This document shows, one piece after another, positions 20,411-62,041 of a stretch of 64,000 nucleotides of DNA (position 1 is the first letter of the stretch; each line of letters opens with the position of its first letter). The position numbers were made by a program, and so were the translations under genes. The DNA lies in contig JADJOZ010000007.1 of assembly GCA_016713525.1 (NCBI GenBank), forward strand, positions 95,033 through 159,032. Reading direction: 5' to 3'. The stretch comes from Bacteroidota bacterium (GTDB lineage Bacteria > Bacteroidota > Bacteroidia > AKYH767-A > OLB10). Below the pieces are notes generated by a model. The model searched no databases. It was given only the letters and a program-made list of their open reading frames with translations, and had not been told where the DNA came from.

Positions 20411-23400
20411 TTATAGTTTCACAATTCTTTCTCGATATACTCCTGAAAGTGTTGAAATTTCCATCATGTAAGTACCTTCAGCAATGTCATCTCCGATATT
20501 AATTTTAGTGATTCCATTCGAAGCAAATCCCTCGCCGGCCTTTTGACTGAAAATTAATTTTCCGGCAGCATCAAATACGGATACTTTTTCTACCACATCA
20601 TTAGCATCTGTGGTTGAAAGATTTATGATGTCACCTCTGAACGGATTAGGGAACAAGGAAACTACACCTGCTTTAATAAATGATACTACTTTAATTTCAC
20701 TGTGACTGGTTCTGCCATCAAAATCGGTTTGACGAAGACGATAATAGTTCACTCCACTATTTGGTTGTTCATCATAAGCAGTATAATTGCTTACTGATGT
20801 GGTCGTACCATTTCCATCCACTGTTAGCAAATCATTAAATTCAAAACCATTTCGGCTTCTTTCAACAGTAAAATAATCATTGTTTATTTCTGATGCAGTT
20901 ATCCAGTCGAGTTTAACAACTCCGGATTGAGCTTTAGCATCAAAAGAGAGTAATTCAACAGGTAAAGGAGAAGATTGAGAAGATAGTGTCCACCAGTTAT
21001 TCAATGAGGTTTGTGTCCCTGCCAAGGTGGTATTAATAGTTGGATTCGATTGTACACCTGCAGGTGGAAACCAGCCAAGAGAAACAGGTTCCCAAAGCTG
21101 AGCACGGGGATTAACAATTCCTCCGCGTTCTGCATTTGTCATTGAGAAAGTAAGATTTGAAGTAACATTACCCGGAACAACAATTCTCCAGAATCTGTCA
21201 ACAGTATTGGCACTATTGTCGGCACCACCAAAATCTCTGACATGTGTAACGGTTGGAGGCAATGGTGAATTATCAACTGCAGAATGATAAGTTGCAATCA
21301 TAACATCACCTGAGCTTCCGGAAACCGGTTGATAGGTAAAAGGAATATACTCTGCATCGTTATAACCAAATGGGATTACAAAACTTCCTGCAGTTGTTAT
21401 ATTCCATCTGATTGCACCGCTACCGTCTTCTGTTTCACTTCTGATGTAACCATCATTTCTTGTAATGGTAGCTCCATTTTCGAGGTTCAGAATATGTCCA
21501 CCACCTGCAGTATTATGATCATTATCAAGATTCAACTCACCATCAGTAACCACAAGACCAGTACGAATATTAACATCATCATTTTCAGGATATGCAAATT
21601 CTATATCCGGAGTACCCTGGAAATTGATGTCAAGATAACCATATTCATGATCAACAGTGGTGGCAATTCCCATTCCTGCTGATGTTATTATTTGATTATC
21701 TAAGCCATTATATTCTACAGTACTATTAGCATCAAGGTAAAAATTCATTCTGTAATCGCCACTTATTTGAGGACGAATAGCCGAACTCCCTGTTGCAAAA
21801 GAATATAGTCCGTTTGGATGACCTGTAGGCAACCGCCCACCACTATTTACATTTACTTTTGCATAGTATAAAGGCTGTTCTCTGGCTGCAATCATATTGG
21901 TACCCAAATTCAGAGTTCCATCGATATTAAGTGTTGTGTGATAATTTATATTTGCACTTGCATGTGAAGCAATAGTAAAATCGAAAGCTGATGCAGCAAA
22001 ATCAACAATTGTGTTTGCAGTTATTAACTGTTTTACTTGTTGAACATCATAAAGTGGTGATGTTCGGGTAACATTAATAGTACCTGGCCGATCATACCTG
22101 ATCAGTCCATATATCGTTCTGGTTGTTAAATGAGCGCGATGCGCAAACACTGTATTATTTCCGATTAAAACATCACTACCTTTAAAAATCAACTCGTGAA
22201 CCGCAGTGCTCAGGTAACAAGAATCAAAACAAAATGTGGAATTTTCAAATGAAGCATTCCCATTAACAGTTAATTTAATCTGATCTGCTGTTGCAGTATT
22301 GCTTTTATTATAAAGTACAGCTACACTATTTAATAAATTATAATTCCCGGCAACATCAATATTTGAAACTCCGGTATTCCATTTACACACTGAAAATCCT
22401 CCTGTTTGGTCAAAATCTCCTTGAATACTCCAGTTTGAAATTCCTTTTTGGGTTGATAAACTTATACTTCCATCTGCTATCAAAATTGAACCACCAATAG
22501 TTCCAGTTATATCATGTCCACGGGAAGAGGCTATTTCATAACCATTAAATCGTGTTTTCCCGCCAAGAATATTGATATTATTTCCGATTGAAATAATTTC
22601 TTCACCACTCGACATGGAGGTGACAAAAAGTCCTTTATTATGCCCGGAAACAATTAAGTTTCCACCCACAGTAAGGTTAAGCCTGGCGGTGTTATAACCT
22701 GCTCTTGAAATTAAATACACAACTTGTAATGAATCAGAAAATGAAATCACAAAGTCATTAGTCACAGTTACATCAATTATTCTTGAATCACTGATTTCAC
22801 CACGATGCAAATAGAATTTACTATTTGTGATAAATAAATCTGAACATGAAAGTGAAGCGTCCCCATTATTACCTGTGGTTCCATTGTTCATGGCACCGAA
22901 TGTGGAATTATTGATGTTGATTACTTCGGTTACATTTAAATCGATGGAACCATATCCTCTCGACTGATAGAAGGAACCGGCATTAACGGATAAACTACCA
23001 TTTATTCCGATGTTAACATTTCCAAATGCTTCTGAATGTCGTTGTCCATAAAATATGGAAGTGGCTCCATTTTGAGTGAAGTTTCTTCCAACCTGCATAT
23101 TTAAACCACCAGCAGTTGTACTTACATACAATTGGGCGTCTGTAATATTCAGATCATTTGTTACTGTTAAATAGGTGTCATTGTAATTGGTATCACAATA
23201 AGCGATGTAACAACGGGTTGTTGCTCCCAACAAAGTCATGTCACCATTAATGGTAACCTGAGCAATACCTAAAGTTCCATAGCTACCCATGAAATAAACA
23301 TTACGTGAATTATCAATAGTAAGACTTCCTGAGTTAAATGTGACATCCCCGTCAAATCTGTCTTTCAAAGTTACCAGAGCAGGATTTCCTGAAATCGTGG

Positions 23401-24733
23401 ATGTTCCTGTAATATTGAATGAAATTGGCCCAACAGCATTTTTATACGCTTCAAAAATACTTCCGTTAACCGAAAAATTTCCGTTTACAAAAATACTGGC
23501 AGAACCCGTATCGGCAACCGATTGACCAAGAACCATGCTAAAGCGGTGTTCGAAATGCAAATCTCCATTTACCGTCCAGATCAAATCTCCCATAGAACGA
23601 AACATGATGTATGACGAATTTGAATTGGTGCTGACATCTGAAAAACTACCAGTTTGTAATGTGAGATCACGAGCTGTTCCTGTACTGACAACTATTCTTC
23701 CTGATCCATCAACAACCACATCATTTAAAATTAAAGAAGTCGACATACCGGTACCATCATCAAAAACAACAGTTCCTGAAGATATTGTTAAGTCGCCTAA
23801 AATTCTGTCAGGAGCAAACAAACCATCCTGTTGCCAGCTTCCAACAGCGTTAAAAATCAAATTTCCAAATTTCCCGCTAACTAACGCACCTAATGGTACA
23901 TTATAATTGTACCATTTTTTCAAAATCATAGTTGAAGTTGGACTAATACTTTCAACTCCGGCAAAGATTCCTGTAGAGGCATCTGTTGTATTGTTATGGG
24001 TATATGTTCCTGATCCAGCAATTTGAAAAACTCCGGATACACCAATACTTTTATCTGTAATAAGGTTACCATTATTATTAATGGTTAAATTCACCAGATT
24101 GACACTAAAATCAGCAATCACCTGATGATTGATTGTAACATTGTCACTACAGCTCGGAATTATACCTCCGGCCCATATTGAAGCATCAGACCAATTTCCG
24201 TCTGCAATTGTTGTATAAGCAGCACCATTTCCTGTCGAGAAAAAACTTCCATGCAATATTCCCGATCCGGGAGCATTTCCTGTAATTGTTGCTGTTCCTC
24301 CAGTTAAGGTTCTGTAGAGATTCCCTGTCTGGTTGGGACCTGTTCCCCGAACTTCAATATTTCTGATTCGGAAATAATCAAGTGCATTAACATTACCAAC
24401 ATTCAGCGTCACGGTGATAGTTGATGCAGTAACACTAATTGATGCAAAACTAATGTCTGCTCCAGATGCAATTGAAATATTTCCAACTCCTGGTTTGAAT
24501 TCAAATCCAAGCGGCGCTGTTAATATAAAGGTGCTACCTGCCTGAATTGGGAAATCATTATTCAAAGTTTCGGCAATAGTTATATTACCAATAATAGCAT
24601 AAGGGCCGGGGGAAATTGACAAACAATTACCTCCGGTAGCGGGGGTGACGGTAACATTGGCTTTTGAAACAGTTACCATAATAAATGATAACAAAATCAA
24701 TAATCCCGGTAATTTGAGTTTTAACTTTTTCAT
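20411..24733 (-). CDS. giant T9SS-secreted surface protein A (beta-helix-like repeats plus type A C-terminal sorting domain)
   Basis: ORF runs to 24862, but the signal peptide MKKLKLKLPGLLILLSFIMVTVSKA starts at 24733; N/G/T/S-rich repeats; GNWSDASIWAGGIIPS motif; C-terminal about 80-aa T9SS sorting domain ending ...ISTLSGVYRERIVKL. Confidence 0.7.
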   Translation of the reverse strand: MKKLKLKLPGLLILLSFIMVTVSKANVTVTPATGGNCLSISPGPYAIIGNITIAETLNNDFPIQAGSTFILTAPLGFEFKPGVGNISIASGADISFASISVTASTITVTLNVGNVNALDYFRIRNIEVRGTGPNQTGNLYRTLTGGTATITGNAPGSGILHGSFFSTGNGAAYTTIADGNWSDASIWAGGIIPSCSDNVTINHQVIADFSVNLVNLTINNNGNLITDKSIGVSGVFQIAGSGTYTHNNTTDASTGIFAGVESISPTSTMILKKWYNYNVPLGALVSGKFGNLIFNAVGSWQQDGLFAPDRILGDLTISSGTVVFDDGTGMSTSLILNDVVVDGSGRIVVSTGTARDLTLQTGSFSDVSTNSNSSYIMFRSMGDLIWTVNGDLHFEHRFSMVLGQSVADTGSASIFVNGNFSVNGSIFEAYKNAVGPISFNITGTSTISGNPALVTLKDRFDGDVTFNSGSLTIDNSRNVYFMGSYGTLGIAQVTINGDMTLLGATTRCYIAYCDTNYNDTYLTVTNDLNITDAQLYVSTTAGGLNMQVGRNFTQNGATSIFYGQRHSEAFGNVNIGINGSLSVNAGSFYQSRGYGSIDLNVTEVININNSTFGAMNNGTTGNNGDASLSCSDLFITNSKFYLHRGEISDSRIIDVTVTNDFVISFSDSLQVVYLISRAGYNTARLNLTVGGNLIVSGHNKGLFVTSMSSGEEIISIGNNINILGGKTRFNGYEIASSRGHDITGTIGGSILIADGSISLSTQKGISNWSIQGDFDQTGGFSVCKWNTGVSNIDVAGNYNLLNSVAVLYNKSNTATADQIKLTVNGNASFENSTFCFDSCYLSTAVHELIFKGSDVLIGNNTVFAHRAHLTTRTIYGLIRYDRPGTINVTRTSPLYDVQQVKQLITANTIVDFAASAFDFTIASHASANINYHTTLNIDGTLNLGTNMIAAREQPLYYAKVNVNSGGRLPTGHPNGLYSFATGSSAIRPQISGDYRMNFYLDANSTVEYNGLDNQIITSAGMGIATTVDHEYGYLDINFQGTPDIEFAYPENDDVNIRTGLVVTDGELNLDNDHNTAGGGHILNLENGATITRNDGYIRSETEDGSGAIRWNITTAGSFVIPFGYNDAEYIPFTYQPVSGSSGDVMIATYHSAVDNSPLPPTVTHVRDFGGADNSANTVDRFWRIVVPGNVTSNLTFSMTNAERGGIVNPRAQLWEPVSLGWFPPAGVQSNPTINTTLAGTQTSLNNWWTLSSQSSPLPVELLSFDAKAQSGVVKLDWITASEINNDYFTVERSRNGFEFNDLLTVDGNGTTTSVSNYTAYDEQPNSGVNYYRLRQTDFDGRTSHSEIKVVSFIKAGVVSLFPNPFRGDIINLSTTDANDVVEKVSVFDAAGKLIFSQKAGEGFASNGITKINIGDDIAEGTYMMEISTLSGVYRERIVKL

Positions 24734-25263
24734 ATCAATGTGGCTGGCACAGCCATTTTTTTCGAGTACAAACGGTTCAACTAGGTGCACATTTATACCA
24801 TTGATGTACTCAAAAGATTGAACATTTTTTAGCAAAACCTTACAATATAATTTCAACCTCAAAATTGATTAAAATATTGCATCTCATTGATTATATGTGA
24901 TTTACAAAATTCTAAAGTGCTCCTTTCTGATCAAAAATGACTTAAAAGTCACTGGTTTGAAAAACAAAGCGCTCAAATGACTTTTGAACAGCCTATCCGA
25001 CTAGTTAAAATGGAATCGTATTGTTGAAAATGTAAGGCATTTACAGATAAAAACAAATTTATAGATTATAACTATATAATATTCAATATATTGTAAATCC
25101 AGACATCAAAATCCAAGCGATTAATTTCTGTAATAAAAGTGAGCATTTTGGTGAACATTCTCGGCTTGAATGATGTATACAGGTTCATCTTTCAATAAAA
25201 AAAAGAGACCGAACACGACACTTTAAGTTAAGAGACTACATATAATATTAATCTGCCCGGATT

Positions 25264-28200
25264 ATGAATCGATTCTGCCCAATCGTATCATTATCATCAT
25301 TAGTGATGATTTTGTTGCTCATTTTTTCACCAACTGCACATGCGGCGGTAACAGTTACACCTGCGTCTTCCGGATCCTGTTTAAACCTGTCACCAGGGGC
25401 ATATCTTGCCATTGGAGATATTGTTATTCAGGAAAATAATAATGGTGATTTTAGCTCCGCCGGAGGTAGTCGTACATTAATTTTATCGGCACCAGCAAAC
25501 TTTCAATTCCAGGCAGGCGTTGGTAATGTAACATATCAGGCAGGTAGAAACATAACTGCCGCAAGTATTGCGGTTGCAGCCGGAACAATTACAGTAACTT
25601 ATACATGTAGCAACACAAATCGTAGCGACCGGATGACCATTTCAGGGATTATGGCTCGAGCAACCGCTGTACCTGCATCCGGAAATATTGTAAGAACAGG
25701 TGGTACAGGAACCATCAATGGAGATGCAACAGGAGGCGGTGTTAACCATGGTACTTTAACAGCCTTTGCCGGTGGAGCTACACGTACATCTATTGCAGCA
25801 GGAAACTGGTCATCTCCCGGAACCTGGTCGGGTGGCAATGTTCCAAATTGCAATGACAATGCCGTCATTAACCACAATGTAACAGGCGACATGAGTACCA
25901 AATTAAACAATCTCACAATAAACACTGGTGGTACATTAACTTCAAACAGTTCTATAACTGTTACAGGAACATTTACCATAGCCGGTACCGGAACATACAT
26001 TCACAATAATAATGCGAATGCTGCAATTGGTATATTTTCAGGAACTGAAAGTTTTTCAACAACCAGCACCATAGAAATGCGTGATTGGTATAATACAAAT
26101 ATCCCACTTGCCACAAATGTTTCAGGAGATTTTGGCCACATCATTTTTGATGAAGGAAGTGGAAGTACCTGGAATCAAGATGGTCTATTTTCCCCCCACC
26201 GTATTAAAGGAAATCTGACAATCAGATCAGGAGGGATTTTAATGGACGATGGTACAGGAATGACTACTACTCTTACCCTTCAGGATGTTTTGCTGGAAGG
26301 AAGTGGTGCATTACGAATTGCTGAAGGCAATGACAGAAATCTGACCTTAGTAACAAACAATTATTCCGACAGCAGAACTTCAGGAAGTGTTTTTTATTCC
26401 GGAATTCAATTCGACTGCTCAGGCAGTGTAAGCTGGACAGCCAATGGAGATGTCCTTATTGAAGCATCGTGGAGCTACTATGAAGGCAGTGCTGGTACCG
26501 GTAATTCTGTGATTACCATAAATGGTGATTTAACAATTGATGCGGGGGCATTCGACTTCAATCGAAATGTGGATGCATCGCTTACAGTAGTCGTTAATGG
26601 AAACACCTATGTGAATAATAATACTACATGGGTTCGCTTTCTCGACAGATACGATGAAGATATAAGTTTTACTACAACGAATATGTATGTATATGGAGGA
26701 GCAAACAATACTTTTCATGGAGGTACAAATCCTACCGGCGATGCCATATTTAATATTACAAATGATTTGATTGTAACCGGTGGATCTACTGTAGCCACTT
26801 TTGTTAGCAGTACTAGTAACACAGCAACTTCAACATTAAATGTTGGAAGAGATATTTTGCTGACAGATGGAGACATCAGAGTTTCAAACACCAATTCAAC
26901 CACAACAATTAATGTAAGCAGAAATATTGTTCTTACGGGATCAAATAGTGATTTTTATGGACAAATTTACAGTTCAGGTAACAAACTCACAGATTTAAAT
27001 GTTACCGGCAATATTGAACTCAACAATGGCGACTTCTATATTTCTCTTGGATTAGGAAATGTAACATGTGATATTGTAGAAAACCTTGATATCAATAATG
27101 GTAGATTTTTTGCAATCAACAATACAGCTGCGGCAAATAATGGTCTTGTTACATTTTCATGCAATGACCTCGACTTCGATGGAGGAATATTCCATCTTTT
27201 CAATGGTAGAATTAATGACGGAAAAACAATAACTGCTACAATTAATGGCAACCTTGATATAAACTTCCTGAACATTGCTGATCTGGTAACTTTCATTGGT
27301 TTAACAGGGACAAATAACCCATTACTTGATCTGAATATCTCTGGAAATATGATCGTTAACGGAAACTTTCCGGGCTCCTATTTTATGAGCAGTTCTTCAT
27401 CAGGAAATGAAACAGTTGATATTGGAGGAAACCTGACAGTAAATGCAGGAGATGTGTTTTTTGTAGGTAATGAATCAGGATTGACAGCCAGTCATAACAT
27501 AACCACCAACATAACTGGTGACATAAATATTACCGGTGGCAATACCCGTCTTTCAACAGGAACAGGTACAGCAGATATTGATGTGGATGGATCTGTTTCC
27601 ATTTCAAATGGAACACTTTCATTGAAATATGATGCAGGTGTTGCTACTCTGAATGTTTTGGGAAGCTATACTCAAAGCGGGGGAACTTTCAACTTACACT
27701 CCAGGAATGCAACAACCGCTGACAACAATATCGTTAATGTATTTGGTAATTTCCTAATGAGCAATGGAACTTTCCGATTCGATAACTTTGCTTCAGGAGC
27801 GGGATTAGCTGAACATAGCTTATTCTTGTATGGCACATCTTTCACACTTGATGGAAATGCTTCAATTATTCATGCAAATGACCTGACCACCAACTACATT
27901 TTTGGTCAAATATATTTTAGCTATCCCGGAACCATGGATTACTTGCGTTACAGCAATACCAATTCTATTAATCATGTTCGTTACACGGTTCAACCTTCCA
28001 CTACACTGGATGCAACCAGCAGCACTTTCCCATTACAAATAACTTCCGTTGATAACAGCACACCTGCAAATCATTTCGCACTTACTGTGAACGGAACCAT
28101 TGATATGGGAAATCAAATCATTCAAGCACGACAATCAGGTTCTCATTATTCAAGGGTTATTGTTGCTGCAGGAGGACGATACAGATTAAGTCACACCGGA

Positions 28201-29601
28201 GGATTATATTCTGGAAATGCATTAACAGCATCTTCAATTGATGGATTTATTAACGGAAATAACCGTGTAAACTATCAGCTCAATATAAGTTCAATCGTTG
28301 AATATTATGGAACTTCAAATATTCCAATCACTGGAATCCCAAATGGAGTTGCCACTGGAAATAATCAAAAATATGGTTTTCTTGAAATAAACTTTACCGG
28401 AGTGGCAGGTTCAACCTGGGTTTATCCGGAAGCTAATAATGAAGTTTATGTTCGATCAGGACTTCTGCTTACTGCAGGTGAATTTAATCTCGATAATGAC
28501 CACAATACAGCAACCGGGGGACGAGCAATTACAATTGAAAACAATGCTACTATCTCACGTACTTCAGGTTTTATCCGTAGTGAAACCGAAGATGGTTCAG
28601 GAATTGTTCAGTGGGATATAAATAGCAATGGAAGCTATGTTGTTCCTTTGGGCTATGATGCTATGACCTACATTCCATTTACATATCAGCAAACTGCCGG
28701 AGCATCAGGCATTGTTTCTTTTGGAACTTATCGTTCAGCAGCAGACAACACCCCTTTCCCTCCAACAGTATCACATGTAAGAGATCTTTCAGGCACTGAT
28801 AATAGTGCTAGTACTATAGACCGGTTCTGGAAACTAACCCAAGCAGGAGCAGGAACAGCAACTTTAACCTTCTCTTATGCTGCTGCAGAAGATCCGGGTA
28901 TATTAAGTCCGAGGGCTCAACTCTGGGAACCGGTTTCACTCGGATGGTTTCCGGCTACTGCAGGACAATCCAATCCAACAGCAACAACTACTGCTGTCCC
29001 TACAATTACTACGTTAAATACCTGGTGGACTCTTGCTGCGGCAGCTTCTCCTCTTCCAATCGAATTACTTTCATTTGAAGCAATTAAATCAGGCAATAAT
29101 GTGGATTTAATCTGGCGAACTGCAAGTGAAATAAATAATGATTTCTTCACTATTCAAAAAAGTAAGAATGGTTATGAATTTGAAGACATTGCCACTGTTG
29201 ATGGTGCTGGCAACAGCACATCGGTAACAAATTACAAAATTACTGATACCAAACCTTACAATGGAATTAACTATTACAGACTGATGCAAACCGATTTTGA
29301 CGGCAAGTTCACTTATAGTGAAATCAGAAGCATTTTCTTCGGTACTAAAGGTGCGATCTCGGTATTCCCGAATCCTGCTCCACAAAATAACCAAATTCAG
29401 ATTGCAATTCCAAATGAAGGAGAGTATACAATGAATATTACTGATGCAAGTGGCAGAATAATTCAATATGAAAAAATTCATGCGACTGCAAATAATCAGA
29501 TAGTACCGATAAATCTGAATGCAACTCTCAGCTCGGGAATATATCAGATTGGAATACAAAATGAAAATGAAAATTACAACTCCAAATTAATAATTCGGTA
29601 A
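25264..29601 (+). CDS. giant T9SS-secreted surface protein B (paralog of A, divergently transcribed)
   Basis: 1445 aa; signal peptide; same architecture as A (AAVTVTPASSGSCLNLSPG vs ANVTVTPATGGNCLSISPG; GNWSSPGTWSGGNVPN; LPIELLSF...); T9SS C-terminal sorting domain. Confidence 0.7.
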   Translation: MNRFCPIVSLSSLVMILLLIFSPTAHAAVTVTPASSGSCLNLSPGAYLAIGDIVIQENNNGDFSSAGGSRTLILSAPANFQFQAGVGNVTYQAGRNITAASIAVAAGTITVTYTCSNTNRSDRMTISGIMARATAVPASGNIVRTGGTGTINGDATGGGVNHGTLTAFAGGATRTSIAAGNWSSPGTWSGGNVPNCNDNAVINHNVTGDMSTKLNNLTINTGGTLTSNSSITVTGTFTIAGTGTYIHNNNANAAIGIFSGTESFSTTSTIEMRDWYNTNIPLATNVSGDFGHIIFDEGSGSTWNQDGLFSPHRIKGNLTIRSGGILMDDGTGMTTTLTLQDVLLEGSGALRIAEGNDRNLTLVTNNYSDSRTSGSVFYSGIQFDCSGSVSWTANGDVLIEASWSYYEGSAGTGNSVITINGDLTIDAGAFDFNRNVDASLTVVVNGNTYVNNNTTWVRFLDRYDEDISFTTTNMYVYGGANNTFHGGTNPTGDAIFNITNDLIVTGGSTVATFVSSTSNTATSTLNVGRDILLTDGDIRVSNTNSTTTINVSRNIVLTGSNSDFYGQIYSSGNKLTDLNVTGNIELNNGDFYISLGLGNVTCDIVENLDINNGRFFAINNTAAANNGLVTFSCNDLDFDGGIFHLFNGRINDGKTITATINGNLDINFLNIADLVTFIGLTGTNNPLLDLNISGNMIVNGNFPGSYFMSSSSSGNETVDIGGNLTVNAGDVFFVGNESGLTASHNITTNITGDINITGGNTRLSTGTGTADIDVDGSVSISNGTLSLKYDAGVATLNVLGSYTQSGGTFNLHSRNATTADNNIVNVFGNFLMSNGTFRFDNFASGAGLAEHSLFLYGTSFTLDGNASIIHANDLTTNYIFGQIYFSYPGTMDYLRYSNTNSINHVRYTVQPSTTLDATSSTFPLQITSVDNSTPANHFALTVNGTIDMGNQIIQARQSGSHYSRVIVAAGGRYRLSHTGGLYSGNALTASSIDGFINGNNRVNYQLNISSIVEYYGTSNIPITGIPNGVATGNNQKYGFLEINFTGVAGSTWVYPEANNEVYVRSGLLLTAGEFNLDNDHNTATGGRAITIENNATISRTSGFIRSETEDGSGIVQWDINSNGSYVVPLGYDAMTYIPFTYQQTAGASGIVSFGTYRSAADNTPFPPTVSHVRDLSGTDNSASTIDRFWKLTQAGAGTATLTFSYAAAEDPGILSPRAQLWEPVSLGWFPATAGQSNPTATTTAVPTITTLNTWWTLAAAASPLPIELLSFEAIKSGNNVDLIWRTASEINNDFFTIQKSKNGYEFEDIATVDGAGNSTSVTNYKITDTKPYNGINYYRLMQTDFDGKFTYSEIRSIFFGTKGAISVFPNPAPQNNQIQIAIPNEGEYTMNITDASGRIIQYEKIHATANNQIVPINLNATLSSGIYQIGIQNENENYNSKLIIR

Positions 29602-29606
29602 GAACT

Positions 29607-29896
29607 GTTGTCAGCACTGCCCTGCTGATAGCTTTCTTCCGGATTGATGTTACCATGTGAACAGTGAAGTAAAGGGTCGGCACTGCCCGGCCGGCCCTTC
29701 TTTTAAAATTAAAATTGACTTAGCATTATCAGTAAATAAAGAGGCTATCACTGCCCTGATAGCCTCTCTTTTCACAAATTAAAACTGAATCCAAATAAAT
29801 TTAGAGACTATCTCTGCCCGGATAGTCTCTCTTTTCAATCTTTAAATAATATTCACAAAATAAGCCAAACTACCACTGCCCTGTTGGTCTGGCTTA
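29607..29896 (+). repeat. array of five stem-loops with invariant CUGCCC loop and co-varying stems (3' region of giant gene B)
   Basis: Hairpins at about 29607-29632, 29674-29697, 29740-29767, 29803-29830 and 29863-29894. Loops are CTGCCC, ACTGCCCG, CTGCCC, (T)CTGCCC(G) and CTGCCC. Stems of 8-13 bp differ in sequence; hairpins 3 and 4 are homologous, with compensatory G-C to A-T changes. Confidence 0.5.
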
Positions 29897-29930
29897 AAAA
29901 AAAGGGGAGAATGTTCAATTCTCCCCTTTC
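29896..29930 (-). terminator. rho-independent terminator of the M20 peptidase gene (bidirectional in form)
   Basis: GGGGAGAAT-GTTCA-ATTCTCCCC hairpin flanked by A8 on the plus strand (T8 after the hairpin on the minus strand). Confidence 0.6.
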
Positions 29931-29947
29931 AATTAATCAATGAAGAT

Positions 29948-31322
29948 TTATTTTTTCATCAATTCAGCATAATTCTTAAAAAAGTGTGGAATAGTTTCAA
30001 TACCCTTCATAAAATTGAATATTCCATAATGTTCATTCGGACTGTGAATATCATCGGAATTTAGTCCGAATCCCAAAAGAACTGACTTCAGTCCTAATTC
30101 TCTTTCAAACAAAGCCACAATTGGAATAGAGCCACCTTCTCTTGTTGGAATTGGTTTCTTACCAAATGTAGTTTCCATTGCTGCACTTGCAGCCTTATAA
30201 GCAACGGAATCAGTAGGAGTTACAACTGGTTCGCCTCCATGGTGTGGTGTAACTTTAACTTTAACCGATTTAGGGGCAATTTTTTCAAAATGCTTCTGAA
30301 ATAAGGCAGTTATTTTTTCAGAAGTCTGGTTTGGAACTAAACGCATTGAAATTTTAGCAAAAGCTTTAGAAGGTAACACAGTTTTCGCACCTTCTCCGAT
30401 ATAACCACCCCAAATGCCATTCAACTCGAAACTCGGACGAATAGATGTTCTTTCATTGGTAGTAAATCCTGATTCTCCATGCACATCATTAATCTGCAGG
30501 TCTTTCATGTAGGCATCCTGACTAAATGGTGCTTTGGCCATTTCATTTCGTTCTTCAGCACTTATTTCAACAACATCATCATAAAAGCCTGGTATAGTGA
30601 TATGATTAGTTTCATCTTTGGTAGCGGCGATCATCTCACCTAAAATCTGGATCGGATTTGCAACTGCTCCACCATAAACTCCGGAATGTAAATCACGATT
30701 TGGTCCTGTAACTTCTACTTCAACATAAGAAAGTCCACGTAAGCCAACAGTTATGGATGGGACATCATTTGCGATCATTGAAGTGTCTGATATCAATATC
30801 ACATCAGCTTTTAAACGGGCTTTGTTATTTTTTACAAATTCACCCAAATTCACCGAACCTACTTCTTCTTCACCTTCAATCAGGAATTTTATATTACAAG
30901 GCAGTGACTGATTTTTCATCATGCTTTCAAAAGCTTTCCATATGCATGAAAACCTGTCCCTTATCGTCACAGGATCCACGCGCATATATTTTCTCATCCT
31001 TTATTATCGGCTCGAAGGGTGGTGAATGCCATAAATCCAATGGATCGGCAGGCTGTACATCATAATGACCATAAACCAAAACTGTTGGCAATGATTCATC
31101 AATAATTTTCTCACCATATACTATTGGATGTCCTTTCGTCTGACAAATTTCAACTTTATCGGCTCCGGCAGTAATCAGATTGTCACTAATAAAAGAGGCA
31201 GCTTTCTGCACATGATCTTTATACTTTGAATCTGCACTTACCGAGGGTATTCTGAGTAAATCGAATAATTCCTTTAAGAACTGATCTTTATGGGTTGCAA
31301 TGTAATTCTGAACTTTTTCCAT
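29948..31322 (-). CDS. M20 family dipeptidase, with apparent 1-nt indel near 30937-30940
   Basis: N-part ...IYARGSCDDKGQVFMHM and C-part KAFESMM...EGEEEVGS... join to the M20 consensus MH(V/M)KA(L/F)E; two ORFs overlap in different frames. Confidence 0.7.
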
Positions 31323-31348: not shown

Positions 31349-32223
31349 TTAAGTTGCTGCAATTTCAGCTTCACGGTTAATTTTCTTTACCAGTCCCTGC
31401 AATACTTTGCCAGGCCCCACTTCAACAAAAGTTTTGCACCGTGTTCAATCATATTCTGAATGGTTTGTGTCCATCGGACCGGTGCTGTTAATTGATCCAC
31501 TAAATTTTTGCGTATGATGTTTGGATCACCTGAAGGCATTGCATTCACATTTTGAAAAACAGGACAAACCGGATTATTGAAACTTGTAGCATCAATAGCA
31601 GCTGCAAGTTTCATGCGGGCAGGCTCCATTATGGGCGAGTGAAATGCACCACCGACATTTAAGAGTAAAGCCCGTTTAGCACCTGCTGCTGTTAGTTTTT
31701 CGCATGCAGTTTTTACTCCTTCAATTGTTCCGGAAATTACTATTTGTCCCGGACAGTTATAATTTGCCGGAACAACCACATCATTAATGGAAGCGCAAAT
31801 ATCTTCAATAATTTTATCGTCAAGATCAAGAATAGCAGCCATGGTTGAAGGGTTCGCCTGACAAGCTTCCTGCATCGCATTTGCGCGTGCAATAACTAAC
31901 CGGAGTGCATCTTCAAACTCAAGTGTTTTGTTGGCTACAAGTGCCGAGAATTCACCCAGTGAATGACCTGCTACCATATCAGGTTTAAAAGCATTTCCTA
32001 AATGTTTGGCAGCAATAACTGAATGAATAAAGATGGCAGGTTGTGTGACATTTGTCTGTTTCAAATCTTCATCAGTACCGGAAAACATCAAATCCGTGAT
32101 TCTGAATCCCAAAATTTCATTGGCACGTTCAAACAATGATTTTGATGCATCGGAATTATCATAGAGCTCTTTGCCCATTCCTACAAATTGCGACCCCTGA
32201 CCGGGGAACAAGTATGCTTTCAT
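31349..32223 (-). CDS. fabD: malonyl-CoA:ACP transacylase FabD, with apparent 1-nt frameshift near 31428-31432
   Basis: GQGSQ, GHSLGEF active-site motif; C-terminus KTFVEVGPGKVLQGLVKKI is in the -1 frame after an A4 run. Confidence 0.75.
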
Positions 32224-32929: not shown

Positions 32930-33346
32930 TTATAATGTTCCGAAATATTCAACAAAATTATTTTCTGTTTCATACAATTTAATACTGTGCAAATGGCCCC
33001 CGGCATCTGAAATATCACCTGCTAATTGCTCCCAGATGGCTTGTGCTAAAACCTCGGTTGAAGGCATTTTTCCCTTCATAAAATCAACATCTAGATTAAT
33101 ATTTTTATGATCAAGTTTGTTGATGACTTTTTCCCTGATTCATGCTGATAATTTCTTCAAATCCATACCAACGCCGGTAACAGGATCAGGATTCCCTTTC
33201 ACAGTCACATAAAGCTCATAGTTATGTCCATGCCAGTTAGGATTAGAACATTTACCAAAAACTTCCATATTTTTTTCATCACTCCAACTGGCAATGTGCA
33301 ATTTGTGTGCTGCATTAAAGCGTTCTTTGCGTGTAACGAATACCAT
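32930..33346 (-). CDS. 6-pyruvoyl-tetrahydropterin synthase/QueD-like protein interrupted by an in-frame TGA (33140-33142)
   Basis: N-part ...CSNPNWHGHNYEL...GMDLKKLSA*, then in-frame IREKVINKLDHKNINLDVDFMKGKMPSTE...LYETENNFVEYFG; the stop aligns with a Leu in homologs. Confidence 0.65.
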
Positions 33347-48064: not shown

Positions 48065-49384
48065 ATGGTACTGCAGGACGCGAAGAGCAAGCATGAACAG
48101 ATTATGGAGATTACAAATCAGAATGTAATCACTTCCAAAGAGTTAGGAATAATTCACCTATCTGACGAGAACGAATTATTGGATGGCCGGCATATCAGAA
48201 TCAGAGGAAAAGAAACGATCAATTTCGGAACGTGCGGATACATGGGACTTGAAATGGATGATCGTTTGAAGGCAGGAGTTATTGATGCCGTCCAGAAGTA
48301 CGGAACTGCATTTGCTTCTACCCGTGTTTATGTGAATGTGAAGCTTTACGCAGAAATGGAAGAGCTTTTGAGAAAAATGTTCAACAAGCCTGTGATGTTG
48401 CTAGCAAATGTTACCCTTTCACATGTTTCCAATATTCCAATTTTAGTTAACGATAATGATGCTGTTATATTAGATACTCAGGTTCATGACAGCGTTCAAA
48501 CAGCAGTTCAATTATTAAAGGCACGTAATGTAAGAATTGAGGTTATCCGCCATAACAGAATGGATCATCTTGAAGAGAAAATAAATGAACTTAAAGGACA
48601 GTACAAGAAAATCTGGTACATGGCCGATGGAGTTTATTCCATGTTCGGCGATTGTGCTCCAATGACTGATATCTACTCATTACTTGATAAGTACGAACAA
48701 TTCAATCTGTATATTGATGATACACATGGTATGAGTTGGACGGGACCAAATGGTACCGGATATGTAATGAGTGCCGTTCCATATTTCCATGACAAGATGA
48801 TTTTGGTTACATCTTTGAACAAGGCATTTGGTGCAGCAGGCGGAATAACCGTATTCCCTAACGAAAAAATACACGAATTTGCCAGAAACTGCAGTAAGCC
48901 ATTCATTTTCTCAGGACCAATTCAACCTCCAATGCTGGGTGCATGTATTGCTTCGGCAAAAATTCACCTTACTCCTGAAATTACAACTATGCAAAAGCAG
49001 TTGAATGACAGAGTAAACTATGTAAATAGCCTTTGTAAAGAATATGAATTGCCTTTAATGTGGGAAAACAATACACCTATATTCTTTATCGGCGTATCTA
49101 AACCTATGGTTGCCTTTAGCATGGTTAAGCGATTGATGAACAGAGGATTCCTGTTTAATCTTTCTGTATTCCCAAGTGTTGCTATTAATAATGCGGGACT
49201 CAGATTGCCGATCAGCAGAAATCATACTTTCGAAGATCTGAAAGGACTTATTTCAAACATAGCTGAAGAACTCCCTGATGCATTCAAGGAATCAAACATT
49301 ACTGCGAAAGAAGTCTATCGTGCATTCAAAAAGCCTTACCCATATCAGAAAAAACAGCCTGATATAAGATTTGAACTTCCATAA
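48065..49384 (+). CDS. alpha-oxoamine synthase family PLP-dependent acyltransferase (AONS/serine palmitoyltransferase-like)
   Basis: 439 aa; class I/II aminotransferase fold with PLP lysine in TSLNKAFGAAGG. Confidence 0.65.
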   Translation: MVLQDAKSKHEQIMEITNQNVITSKELGIIHLSDENELLDGRHIRIRGKETINFGTCGYMGLEMDDRLKAGVIDAVQKYGTAFASTRVYVNVKLYAEMEELLRKMFNKPVMLLANVTLSHVSNIPILVNDNDAVILDTQVHDSVQTAVQLLKARNVRIEVIRHNRMDHLEEKINELKGQYKKIWYMADGVYSMFGDCAPMTDIYSLLDKYEQFNLYIDDTHGMSWTGPNGTGYVMSAVPYFHDKMILVTSLNKAFGAAGGITVFPNEKIHEFARNCSKPFIFSGPIQPPMLGACIASAKIHLTPEITTMQKQLNDRVNYVNSLCKEYELPLMWENNTPIFFIGVSKPMVAFSMVKRLMNRGFLFNLSVFPSVAINNAGLRLPISRNHTFEDLKGLISNIAEELPDAFKESNITAKEVYRAFKKPYPYQKKQPDIRFELP

Positions 49385-49412
49385 AAAAACCGCCTTAAGG
49401 GCGGTTTTTTTA
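49383..49412. terminator. bidirectional rho-independent terminator
   Basis: A7-CCGCC-TTAAG-GGCGG-T7 between the convergent genes at 49384 and 49410. Confidence 0.7.
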
Positions 49413-49838
49413 TGGAAGTTCGGTCAAGCTCCAGAAGCCATTTAGTACCGAGACGGCATCTACGTAGCTTTCCAGACTTAAAGGTTTAACAATATAACCG
49501 GCAACATTCTGACCATATGCCTCAATGCGATCGCGGTCATCATTAGATGTTGACATTACATACACCGAAATAGGTTTCAACTCTTCATCGGCACGTAATT
49601 CTTTTAAGAATTCGTGTCCGTTCATTTGAGGCATGTTTAAGTCAAGTAAAATGATACTTGGACGAGGTGTAATCTTTTCAAAACCATTGGTTCCCCGCAA
49701 CATATCCAATGCCATAAGTCCATTCTTTGCCTGATACAATTTGTAATTCAAATCGGTCTTTTTCAGGGCCCTTTGCATGACCATGGCGTCCACTTCGTCA
49801 TCCTCAACATGGAGGATATTTACCGTCTTCGTTGACAT
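49410..49838 (-). CDS. single-domain response regulator (CheY-like receiver)
   Basis: 142 aa; DD...D phospho-acceptor (ILLDLNMP), T/S and K motifs. Confidence 0.75.
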   Translation of the reverse strand: MSTKTVNILHVEDDEVDAMVMQRALKKTDLNYKLYQAKNGLMALDMLRGTNGFEKITPRPSIILLDLNMPQMNGHEFLKELRADEELKPISVYVMSTSNDDRDRIEAYGQNVAGYIVKPLSLESYVDAVSVLNGFWSLTELP

Positions 49839-59626: not shown

Positions 59627-62041
59627 ATGACTACTGATAACCAACCAGACCAAAGACTTCAGGATGAGAAGCGCTTTAATTTTAAATATTTCTTCTATAG
59701 AAATGTACTGAAATATTGGTATTTATATGTATTAAGTATGATTTTGGCGATAGTTGCCGGATACTATCACAATTGGTACACAACTCCTATTTACTCTACT
59801 TCTTGTACAATACTTATTAAGGATGATAAAAGAACCGCTCCTGGTCAGGATCTCCTTACGCAATTAAATTCATTCGATAATCAGGGAGGCATTGATAATG
59901 ATGTGGAACTGATCAAGTCGAGATCAATTATCGGAAAAACTTTAAGAAGGCTTGATTTTGATGTAACTTATTTGCTTCGGGGCAATGTAAAAAAATCGGA
60001 ATTATATCTTCAGTCACCTATTAAATTAATTGCAGATTCCATTTCTTTCAGGATTTACGAAAAACACATTGAAATTACTGTAATTGATGACAAAACATAT
60101 GAGATCAGTTATCATCTGAATGACGACAATTCATATACCGAAAAATATAAATTCGGACAGATTGTTTCCAATCATTTCGGAAGATTTTCATTAGAAAAAA
60201 CCGATAAATTCAGAGATGCCTCTTTCAGGGATGCAAATTATGAAAAGCGAAATTTCATTGTAATACTTCATAATTTCGACAATTTAGTTGATAAGTACAC
60301 CAAGGGACTTGATATTCAATTTGTCTCTAAGAAGGCCACTGTTTTGCAATTGTCTTATAATGATCCTGTCCCTCAGAAAGCCGGAGATTTTCTGAATACA
60401 TTGCTGGAAGTTTATATTCAGAGCGGAATTGATCAAAAAAATGAAAACGCAACAAGTTCATTAAAGTTTATAGATGAACAGTTAGATAAAATAACTTCAG
60501 ATCTTAAATCTTCGGAAGAAGATCTTGAAATGTTTAAAACCGAAAAAGGAATTACAGATTTAGGAACAGAAGCACAATCATTTCTCGGGAGTGTAAAAGT
60601 TTATGATGAGAAAATTTCAGAAATAGATATTCAATTATCTTTTTTGAGATATCTGGAAGAATATATTCTTAAGGATAAAGATCTCGATAAAATTTCCCCT
60701 TCTTCACTTGGCATTGCGGATCCACTGCTGACTAAACTCATTACCTCATTAAGCGACCTGCAAATGCAACGTAAGGGGCAGTTAAATTCAACTCAACCCG
60801 ACAATCCAATTATTGTTTCTTTAAACATTCAGATTCAAAATACAAAACAGGATTTATTAGAAAATGTCCGTTCCATTAAGAATGGTCTGGAAGCATCAAA
60901 AGAACAGGCTTCAATTCAATTATCAAGAATTCAGGGCAAAATTAAAACGGTGCCAAAAACACAAAGAGCTTTGGTTGGTATGGAAAGGCAGGCATCAATC
61001 AGAGAGGGGCTTTACAATTACCTTCTTCAAAAAAAGGCAGAAACAGCGATTTTATTAGCTTCAACAAATTCTGACAACCGAATTGTTGATAAAGCACGTG
61101 CTTCCTATAAGCCTATCAAACCAGTTCCAAATCAAACATATTCATTTGCAATTCTATTAGGTTTGTTAATTCCGGCCATTTTTGTGTTTGTTAAGGAAGC
61201 TCTGAATGATAAAATTAAAGATGGGTCTGATCTGGAGAATAATACTTCAATCCCTGTACTTGGTCTGGTAGGTTATAATGAAGATCATGACAATCAAATT
61301 GTAGCTTCAAAACCGGATTCTTTCATTGCAGAGTCTTTCAGGTCCATTCGTACCAATTTACAATATTATCCACAAAAGTCAAATTGTCGAAAAATACTTG
61401 TAACCTCTTCAATCAGTTCGGAAGGAAAGAGTTTTTGTGCAGCCAACTTATCGGCCATATATGCCATATCCGGTAAAAAGGTGGTGTTGGTCGGAGGAGA
61501 TTTAAGGAAACCTAAAAAGAATCAGGAGTTCAACTTGCCTTCAAATGCCGGTATATCCAATTATCTGATCGGAGTTTCCGATATTGAAGGAATCATTCAG
61601 CATTCTTCTTCAGTTCCAAATCTGGATATTATACTTTCAGGTCCGAAACCACCTAATCCATCAGAATTAATTTTAAGTTCTAAGATGGATGACTTCTTTA
61701 GTTATCTTGAATCTAAGTATGAAGTTATAATTATTGACTCTCCTCCTATCGGTGTTGTAACTGACGGAATGTTATTGAGCAAGTATGTAGATAATACCAT
61801 ATACGTTGTAAGGCAAAATGTGACCCGAAAACAACATATTGAATTTATTAACAGCCTCTATAAAGATTCCAAACTCCCTAAACTAAGTTTAATATTTAAT
61901 GCTGTCAGAACCGGCCCACTGAATTCTGGTTATGGTTACGGATATGGTTATGGATATGGTTATGGATACGGTTATGGTTATGGTTATTATGAAGATGACA
62001 ATGCCAGTGGTCGTAAAAAAAGAAAGTCCAAACAATCTTAA
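59627..62041 (+). CDS. polysaccharide co-polymerase / BY-kinase tyrosine autokinase (Wzc-like) with (GY)10 C-terminal tail
   Basis: 804 aa; N-terminal TM, periplasmic Wzz region, second TM, C-terminal P-loop (SSISSEGKS Walker A; VIIIDSPP Walker B) and Tyr-rich tail. Confidence 0.75.
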   Translation: MTTDNQPDQRLQDEKRFNFKYFFYRNVLKYWYLYVLSMILAIVAGYYHNWYTTPIYSTSCTILIKDDKRTAPGQDLLTQLNSFDNQGGIDNDVELIKSRSIIGKTLRRLDFDVTYLLRGNVKKSELYLQSPIKLIADSISFRIYEKHIEITVIDDKTYEISYHLNDDNSYTEKYKFGQIVSNHFGRFSLEKTDKFRDASFRDANYEKRNFIVILHNFDNLVDKYTKGLDIQFVSKKATVLQLSYNDPVPQKAGDFLNTLLEVYIQSGIDQKNENATSSLKFIDEQLDKITSDLKSSEEDLEMFKTEKGITDLGTEAQSFLGSVKVYDEKISEIDIQLSFLRYLEEYILKDKDLDKISPSSLGIADPLLTKLITSLSDLQMQRKGQLNSTQPDNPIIVSLNIQIQNTKQDLLENVRSIKNGLEASKEQASIQLSRIQGKIKTVPKTQRALVGMERQASIREGLYNYLLQKKAETAILLASTNSDNRIVDKARASYKPIKPVPNQTYSFAILLGLLIPAIFVFVKEALNDKIKDGSDLENNTSIPVLGLVGYNEDHDNQIVASKPDSFIAESFRSIRTNLQYYPQKSNCRKILVTSSISSEGKSFCAANLSAIYAISGKKVVLVGGDLRKPKKNQEFNLPSNAGISNYLIGVSDIEGIIQHSSSVPNLDIILSGPKPPNPSELILSSKMDDFFSYLESKYEVIIIDSPPIGVVTDGMLLSKYVDNTIYVVRQNVTRKQHIEFINSLYKDSKLPKLSLIFNAVRTGPLNSGYGYGYGYGYGYGYGYGYGYYEDDNASGRKKRKSKQS
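61928..61990 (+). repeat. imperfect hexanucleotide (GGNTAY)10 repeat encoding the (GY)10Y tail of the BY-kinase
   Basis: ggt tat ggt tac gga tat ggt tat gga tat ggt tat gga tac ggt tat ggt tat ggt tat tat. Confidence 0.6.

Follow-up and report, generated by a model that had tools for sequence, protein, structure and literature searches.

Hairpins presenting the same six-base loop, CUGCCC, at both ends of a single mRNA constitute a real element under selection, which is previously undescribed and narrowly distributed. The mRNA is that of gene B (25264-29601, + strand), which encodes a secreted surface protein of 1445 aa and bears all the CUGCCC hairpins of the window, i.e., of the whole 64 kb stretch of DNA that was analyzed (G+C content 38%). 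The distribution and conservation of the hairpins suggest a lineage-restricted control element that is read by a putative factor. A first-pass annotation of the same DNA had recorded the hairpins that follow the gene; the two hairpins at its start codon and the resemblance of three of the downstream ones to terminators are additions to that record. Below, handles of the L004 type denote related lineages, and identities refer to protein, relative to the window.

Hairpins at the two ends of gene B

The gene B protein carries a signal peptide (MNRFCPIV...AHA) and a type IX secretion C-terminal sorting domain (Por_Secre_tail, E = 3.9e-08); identical proteins (MBK9046462.1 and other records) originate from several activated-sludge Bacteroidota genome bins. 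Divergently oriented upstream of the gene is gene A, a paralog of about 1440 aa, while a convergent M20 peptidase gene lies downstream. The total number of CTGCCC copies in the window is ordinary (16 vs 14.5 expected); however, 7 of the 11 copies on the + strand fall into two short stretches at opposite ends of gene B, and the extended apex CACTGCCCKG occurs four times, compared to an expectation of 0.08.

The five CTGCCC-loop hairpins noted earlier downstream of gene B are confirmed as stable folds between 29596 and 29896, and their stems differ as had been quoted. The hexamer starts on the + strand at 29617, 29683, 29751, 29814, and 29876, with a spacing of 66, 68, 63, and 62 nt, and every one of these copies forms a hairpin apex in the minimum-free-energy fold of the whole spacer (-116.6 kcal/mol, z = -9.7, 0 of 100 shuffles as good). 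When folded singly, the hairpins reach -12.5 to -20.8 kcal/mol, with z-scores from -2.9 to -5.7. The first one (hp1, 29596-29641, + strand; -20.8 kcal/mol, z = -5.5) is long and imperfect, with the CUGCCC loop at 29617-29622 and the gene B stop codon (29599-29601) within its lower stem; in its orthologs from L001 and L004 both the lower and the upper parts of the stem are changed. It has GTCRGCACTGCCCKGC in the apex flanks in common with the second hairpin (hp2, 29672-29699, + strand; -18.8 kcal/mol), which consists of a G+C-rich stem of 10 bp with the apex A-CUGCCC-G, followed by CUUCUUUU, and whose orthologs in L001 and L004 differ by G-C to G-U replacements at different pairs.

The remaining three hairpins, hp3, hp4, and hp5, are tandem units of 63 nt. 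Both hp3 (29740-29767, + strand; -17.3 kcal/mol, z = -5.7) and hp4 (29803-29830, + strand; -14.9 kcal/mol) comprise an 11-bp stem with a CUGCCC loop followed by CUCUUUUC. The earlier claim that these two are duplicated, with compensatory changes, holds: their 51-nt units are 80% identical, and hp4 departs from hp3 by two compensated pair changes (G-C to A-U and A-U to U-G). An ortholog of hp3 is found in L004 and missing in L001, while hp4 has orthologs in both. The fifth hairpin (hp5, 29861-29896, + strand; -12.5 kcal/mol), with an imperfect stem containing two mismatches and a CUGCCC loop, is a diverged third copy of the hp3/hp4 unit present in this species only. A sixth hairpin (29900-29930, minus strand; -18.4 kcal/mol) had correctly been assigned to the convergent M20 peptidase gene as its terminator: a 13-bp stem with the loop GTTCA/TGAAC precedes eight U, its position is conserved in L001 and L004, and it stands outside the CUGCCC family.

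Judged by sequence, hp2, hp3, and hp4 also look like intrinsic terminators, as each is followed by a U-rich tract. A terminator scan flags hp1 and hp4; hp2 and hp3, with four U in the first eight bases, fall just short of the terminator rule, and hp5 is devoid of a U-tract. Orthologous copies possess longer U-tracts, e.g., GCUUUUUUUUU in L001. The last three hairpins of the array may lie beyond the real end of the transcript.

Several short similarities were observed in and around the array. A block between hp1 and hp2 (ACCATRTGAACAGTGAAGYAAA, 29648-29670) is conserved in the window, L001, and L004, and absent from L006; the other spacers between hairpins are barely alignable. The CAGTG within this block is complementary to the CACTG of the hairpin apices. 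Fourteen nucleotides of the gene B 5' UTR (AAGTTAAGAGACTA, window 25224-25242) recur unchanged in L001 (L001 8491-8508), where they make up the left flank and arm of the hp4-type hairpin. Within the window itself, the same 5' UTR segment and hp4 (29799-29813) have AGAGACTA in common, with CTGCCCGGAT next in both, and a similar resemblance between the two ends exists in the own sequence of L006 (TGAGTTA / TGAGTAA).

At the start codon, the hexamer occurs twice. The upstream hairpin (5'a, 25249-25264, + strand) is weak (-2.8 kcal/mol) and can be drawn as UAAUCU-GCCC-GGAUUA or as a UAAU/AUUA stem with the loop CUGCCCGG. Its CTGCCC (25253-25258) is located 6-11 nt upstream of the ATG, whose A is the last base of the 3' arm of the hairpin. 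L001, L004, L006, L129, and L130 likewise have a CTGCCC shortly before the ATG, while L128 and L131 have none; the stems around it differ (UAUAUAAU/AUUAUAUA in L129, AUAUC/GAUAU in L130).

The second hairpin (5'b, 25264-25291, + strand; -5.4 kcal/mol, z = -2.7) is formed by codons 1-9. Its lower stem pairs the AUG with a CAU, and its upper stem (CGAUU/AAUCG) presents CUGCCC at 25275-25280, i.e., at +12 to +17. This upper hairpin (CGAUU-CUGCCC-RAUCG) spans about codons 3-8, and 5'b is part of the minimum-free-energy fold in all seven orthologs folded. At the DNA level, it reads CGA TTC TGC CCR ATC G in eight lineages, down to 46% protein identity, while the rest of the signal peptide is not conserved across the orthologs sharing it. 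The codons CGA, TTC, TGC, and ATC are fixed though non-preferred, which has a joint probability of about 0.005 under local codon usage. Part of the conservation of this loop could act at the protein level, because the loop also codes for Phe-Cys-Pro. The loops of 5'a and of the 3' hairpins are non-coding and therefore cannot be explained by protein coding.

Phyletic distribution and constraint on the loop

The lineages examined differ in which of the two ends carries the hexamer. The window, with both 5' hairpins and five hairpins at the 3' end, is most similar to its close relatives L004 (84%) and L001 (85%), which possess both 5' hairpins with CUGCCC loops and, respectively, four and three CUGCCC hairpins after the gene. 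In L006 (61%) both 5' hairpins are again accompanied by a 3' array, here of two CUGCCC hairpins with quite different stems and then a plain terminator. The deep lineages L128, L131, L130, and L129 (51-46%) have kept 5'b, and two of them (L129 and L130) also have the upstream CTGCCC hairpin with new stems. On the 3' side, L128 and L129 show only a plain terminator, and L130 and L131 contain no CTGCCC within the approximately 70 nt between the stop codon and the end of their contigs. Four further lineages, L005, L007, L157, and L158, have kept the 5'b stem and its pairing with the AUG, with a U-A to A-U flip in L005 and L007, and have no 3' array; their loops (CUUACC, UUUACC, GAAUCA, and CAGCCA) are all different. 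CUGCCC is also missing from the 5' end in P0012 and L134.

In the neighbor-joining tree, the array-bearing lineages form one clade, and the three included lineages with drifted loops (L158 was left off the tree) form its sister clade; lineages with CUGCCC only at the 5' end branch deeper. It follows from this topology that the 5'-end CUGCCC is ancestral and was given up in the sister clade, which amounts to one event on the tree. The 5' copies are thus the older, core part of the element, with 5'b as its ancestral core, and the 3' arrays are a later gain limited to the clade of the window (2-5 copies). Sequence comparison further suggests that the 3' hairpins may have been seeded through copying of the gene B 5' leader; the arrays then grew by tandem duplication. 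A metagenome search for relatives of gene B added a single locus with hairpins, strain L132 (99.7% identical), which differs from the window at 33 positions over 10.3 kb, none of them in the hairpins; none of the other 24 loci had hairpins.

The constraint on the family was assessed with an ungapped alignment of 20 hairpins from eight lineages (14 from the 3' end and 6 distinct copies of 5'b). The six loop bases are the sole invariant columns, and all 20 hairpins have CUGCCC. Across the 10-bp stem, 86.8% of the cells are paired, compared to 56.8% in shuffles (0 of 500 reach the observed value) and 20-45% with slid partners. Changes on both sides are found at each of the 10 stem pairs, although the hairpins are partly paralogs and the lineages are related, so that these counts do not represent independent events. 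Double changes separate hp3 from hp4 and also the L006 hairpins from either of their possible counterparts in the window. A conserved loop on co-varying stems is supported as the mark of a selected RNA structure, as had been proposed for the 3' array, and the orthologs strengthen this view. On the kept stem of L005, L007, L157, and L158, which are devoid of a 3' array, the loop has drifted; constraint on the loop is thus restricted to lineages that use the motif. No other single argument that something reads the loop is as strong as its invariance in deep lineages, set against the four different loops of one shallower clade.

Candidate modes of action

The reading that we favor, with about even confidence, is that the gene B mRNA carries the CUGCCC hairpins as cis-acting RNA sites, recognized via the loop by a putative trans-acting factor, likeliest a sequence-specific RNA-binding protein. 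The existence of this factor, its protein nature, and the direction of its effect are what we infer. The core pair of sites brackets the start codon and would act as a translational operator: the bound factor would clamp two marginal hairpins (-2.8 and -5.4 kcal/mol) holding the AUG, and initiation would be blocked. In the clade of the window, the loop would have been copied into the 3' UTR onto long stable stems and then amplified to 2-5 copies per mRNA. These copies potentially serve as high-affinity auxiliary sites on the same mRNA, which could concentrate the factor locally, buffer it for the weak pair at the start codon, or shield the 3' end. Protection of the 3' end had been suggested previously as an explanation of the array; it is retained here as a possible role, but on its own it leaves the invariant loop and the start-codon copies unexplained.

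A more elaborate version is put forward only tentatively. It envisages a Bacteroidota circuit in which a loop-specific RNA-binding factor shuts the start codon via the CUGCCC pair, the 3' UTR of the same mRNA provides a high-affinity decoy or landing array, and translation is set by the ratio of factor to mRNA. Such a circuit, which would combine the logic of iron-responsive elements (IRE) and of CsrB on one bacterial transcript and be of a kind undescribed in the phylum, is regarded as rather doubtful. CsrB-like titration of a loop-specific binder is possible, and is made somewhat more plausible by the two target-like sites at the start codon. Sites seen on only one gene would be unusual for a dedicated regulator. 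The products of the small open reading frames of the window, such as L28, HU, and a response regulator, include no RRM, KH, or CsrA protein. RbpB, the only tested RRM protein of Bacteroides, bound GUAGGAUA and not a C/U-rich motif (bioRxiv 10.1101/2021.04.27.441718).

Two other ideas were dropped. Long-range pairing between the 5' UTR and the 3' UTR was no better than in shuffles (fraction of shuffles as good 0.05-0.49). Mimicry of an anticodon loop was considered as CUGCC corresponds to positions 32-36 of the tRNA-Gly(GCC) loop, but the hairpin loops have 6 or 8 bases, not 7.

The reader of the loops might instead be another RNA that exposes GGGCAG, e.g., in a hairpin loop of its own, and engages them by six-base kissing, so that the start codon is blocked and the 3' copies are targets or decoys. 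An invariant loop on free stems fits base pairing as well as it fits recognition by a protein, and five of the six loop bases are G or C, which, extrapolating from known kissing complexes, would be enough for a stable loop-loop contact. An RNA partner would also be in keeping with one survey reporting that Bacteroidetes largely lack the RNA chaperones CsrA, Hfq, and ProQ (bioRxiv 10.1101/2021.04.27.441718). However, we consider it unlikely, as the 64 kb window contains no GGGCAG in a hairpin (the five + strand copies have flanking stems of at most 3 bp), no GGGCAG is conserved within gene B or its flanks in the orthologs, and Rfam gave no candidate small RNA.

Similarly improbable is that the 3' hairpins are a stack of tandemly duplicated intrinsic terminators, which would insulate a strongly expressed gene of 4.3 kb from the convergent peptidase gene and protect its 3' end. 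The U-rich tracts after hp2-hp4, the flagging of hp1 and hp4, and the stronger tails of the orthologs are what such a stack would produce, as are the 63-nt tandem units of hp3-hp5 and the apex flanks shared by hp1 and hp2. On this explanation, the common loop would be inherited with the duplicated unit, and the 5' copies would be unrelated products of coding constraint and chance. However, terminator loops normally vary freely, but here the loop is the sole invariant part, and the stems have turned over almost wholly, also between orthologous copies. Moreover, hp1 and hp5 have no proper U-tract, and the hexamer is also present in two start-codon hairpins, one of them non-coding, and is kept in lineages without a 3' array. 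The other terminators of the window use other loops; in the strong ones, these are unrelated to CUGCCC. The statement in the first-pass annotation that the hairpins are not simple terminators finds support in the invariant loop and the start-codon copies, with the reservation that hp2-hp4 are also terminator-like.

Finally, a DNA-level element, i.e., a REP- or MITE-like palindromic repeat family (as had been suggested earlier) or hairpin sites of a recombinase or transposase, is highly improbable. In its favor, the units are palindromic and tandemly duplicated, and the recurrence of AAGTTAAGAGACTA (14 nt of the window 5' UTR) before the hp4-type hairpin of L001 points to sequence copied between the gene ends. 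However, no further copy was detected on either strand of the 64 kb window or in 298 kb of related loci, and the stems, which carry the identity of REP families, lack conservation. Every copy belongs to the sense strand of a single gene, one of them lies within codons conserved across lineages at 46% identity, and two pattern scans of viral contigs revealed no such hairpins.

The searches behind this assessment covered several collections. A covariance model (R1), applied to the 64 kb window with filters off, recovered six known copies only (24.9-37.6 bits), the next match being at 14.9 bits, and in the 298 kb of related loci it returned only copies already known. A dispersed repeat is not supported in the DNA sampled (64 kb window and 298 kb of related loci). 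A pattern scan of a genome collection for tandem CACTGCCCKG yielded no paired CTGCCC hairpins among the matches listed, which were mostly chance matches or coding repeats of high-G+C genomes. In viral contigs, scanning with the tandem pattern and with the 5'b 16-mer gave no arrays and chance single matches of 18-23 bits. There were no matches to Rfam release 15 at gathering thresholds in the whole window, and under permissive settings 29500-30000 and 25180-25340 showed nothing beyond sub-threshold chance matches, mostly to generic terminator shapes. The order gene A, gene B, M20 peptidase, FabD, and FolE is kept in all fetched loci reaching past gene B; as lineages that have the hairpins do not differ in this order from those that lack them, the element is not a mobile cassette.

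The cis-acting sites favored here resemble several known systems in part; in their proposed working, they come closest to CsrA sites combined with a CsrB-type decoy or to IRE hairpins employed at both mRNA ends. Targets of CsrA/RsmA and the decoy RNAs CsrB/RsmZ likewise expose a short motif in the loops of hairpins whose stems vary, and a pair of sites surrounds the translation start of the target; a row of many hairpins spaced by about 60 nt could, as in CsrB/RsmZ, soak up a binder. However, the loops of the CsrA/RsmA system contain a GGA core (ANGGA), whereas all 20 hairpins here have CUGCCC, and CsrB/RsmZ are separate small RNAs, whereas the present row is part of the 3' UTR of the very mRNA that is targeted, with one target gene seen. 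The likeness to the IRE/IRP system of animals is one of logic only: a hexaloop hairpin at the 5' end of an mRNA blocks translation, while five in tandem in a 3' UTR control stability. The IRE is defined by a CAGUGN loop and a bulged C five pairs below it, whereas the CUGCCC hairpins have another loop and no conserved bulge; besides, the 5' and 3' uses are on different mRNAs in animals and on one mRNA here. ANTAR target RNAs consist of two small adjacent hairpins with six-base loops, and can overlap a terminator or, in actinobacteria, a translation start. Of the present hairpins, 5'b has a clean hexaloop, 5'a a loop of 4 or 8 bases, and the 3' hairpins are 62-68 nt apart, not adjacent; furthermore, the first and fourth loop bases, which must be A and G in ANTAR targets, are both C here. 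The sequence-defining features of the CsrA, IRE, and ANTAR families are missing, and CUGCCC is therefore a new motif and no member of these.

In the operators of the MS2/PP7 coat proteins, a small hairpin likewise encloses or abuts the start codon, and the protein stops translation by reading the loop sequence, not the stem; here, in contrast, the gene is cellular, the loop is another one, there are two hairpins with extra 3' copies, and the binder is putative. With their G+C-containing stems, the U-rich tracts behind these, and their stacking ahead of a convergent gene, hp2-hp4 are reminiscent of tandem intrinsic terminators, which, however, have no conserved loop and no counterparts at the start codon of their gene. 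REPs have a conserved stem with GTAG or CGTC tags, whereas the stems of the CUGCCC hairpins vary at all 10 pairs. No paper found in the literature ties a CUGCCC loop to a bacterial regulator.

To our knowledge, few cis-acting RNA control elements have been described in Bacteroidetes. It is unusual in bacteria for a site at the start codon of an mRNA to recur in its tandem 3' terminators; if the favored reading is true, this arrangement exemplifies bacterial control of a single secreted surface protein of very large size. As a bait, a six-base loop on any stem is well defined, and the sister clade with drifted loops offers a natural control; together, they could help to find a new RNA-binding regulator in Bacteroidota. 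The reach of the element may be narrow, comprising one gene family of uncultured activated-sludge bacteria.

Further observations on the locus

Genes A (20411-24733) and B (25264-29601) are divergently transcribed paralogs of approximately 40-45% identity. The pair is retained with the same neighbors in every examined lineage with enough flanking sequence, including L128, L129, L130, and L131, and within it the hairpin motif is confined to gene B. The listed open reading frame of gene A starts at a TTG (24862, minus strand); its likely true start is the ATG at 24733 (MKKLKLKLPGL...), in agreement with its relatives. A small hairpin, TGGCTG-TGC-CAGCCA (24740-24756, + strand), is located 8 nt upstream of this likely start. 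Read on the + strand, it is followed by seven T in a terminator-like manner, and it recurs in L001 and L004 with different loops. In 8 of the 10 lineages checked, the approximately 520 nt preceding gene B do not contain the standard Bacteroidota promoter motif TAnnTTTG; in the remaining two, it is placed far upstream (-384 and -345).

Relative to L132, a metagenome strain with 99.7% identity, the window shows an insertion of 1 nt at 30938 and a deletion of 1 nt at 31431, the latter in the FabD gene. The insertion splits the M20 peptidase gene into open reading frames of 349 and 131 aa, while the orthologs have 457 aa. The PTPS gene of the window (33140-33346) is also truncated, with 68 aa vs approximately 137 aa. 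The disruptions of the M20 peptidase, FabD, and PTPS genes look like assembly indel errors rather than true pseudogenes.

Elsewhere in the window, a perfect 25-bp hairpin with a 3-base loop (TTGAACTTCCATAAAAAAACCGCCT-TAA-..., 49371-49423) is flanked by convergent genes, one of them coding for a response-regulator receiver protein; its length is unusual for a bidirectional terminator. Near the 3' end of an open reading frame of 804 aa (59627-62041), tandem TATGGTTA-like repeats (61930-61995) would encode a Gly-Tyr repeat tail.
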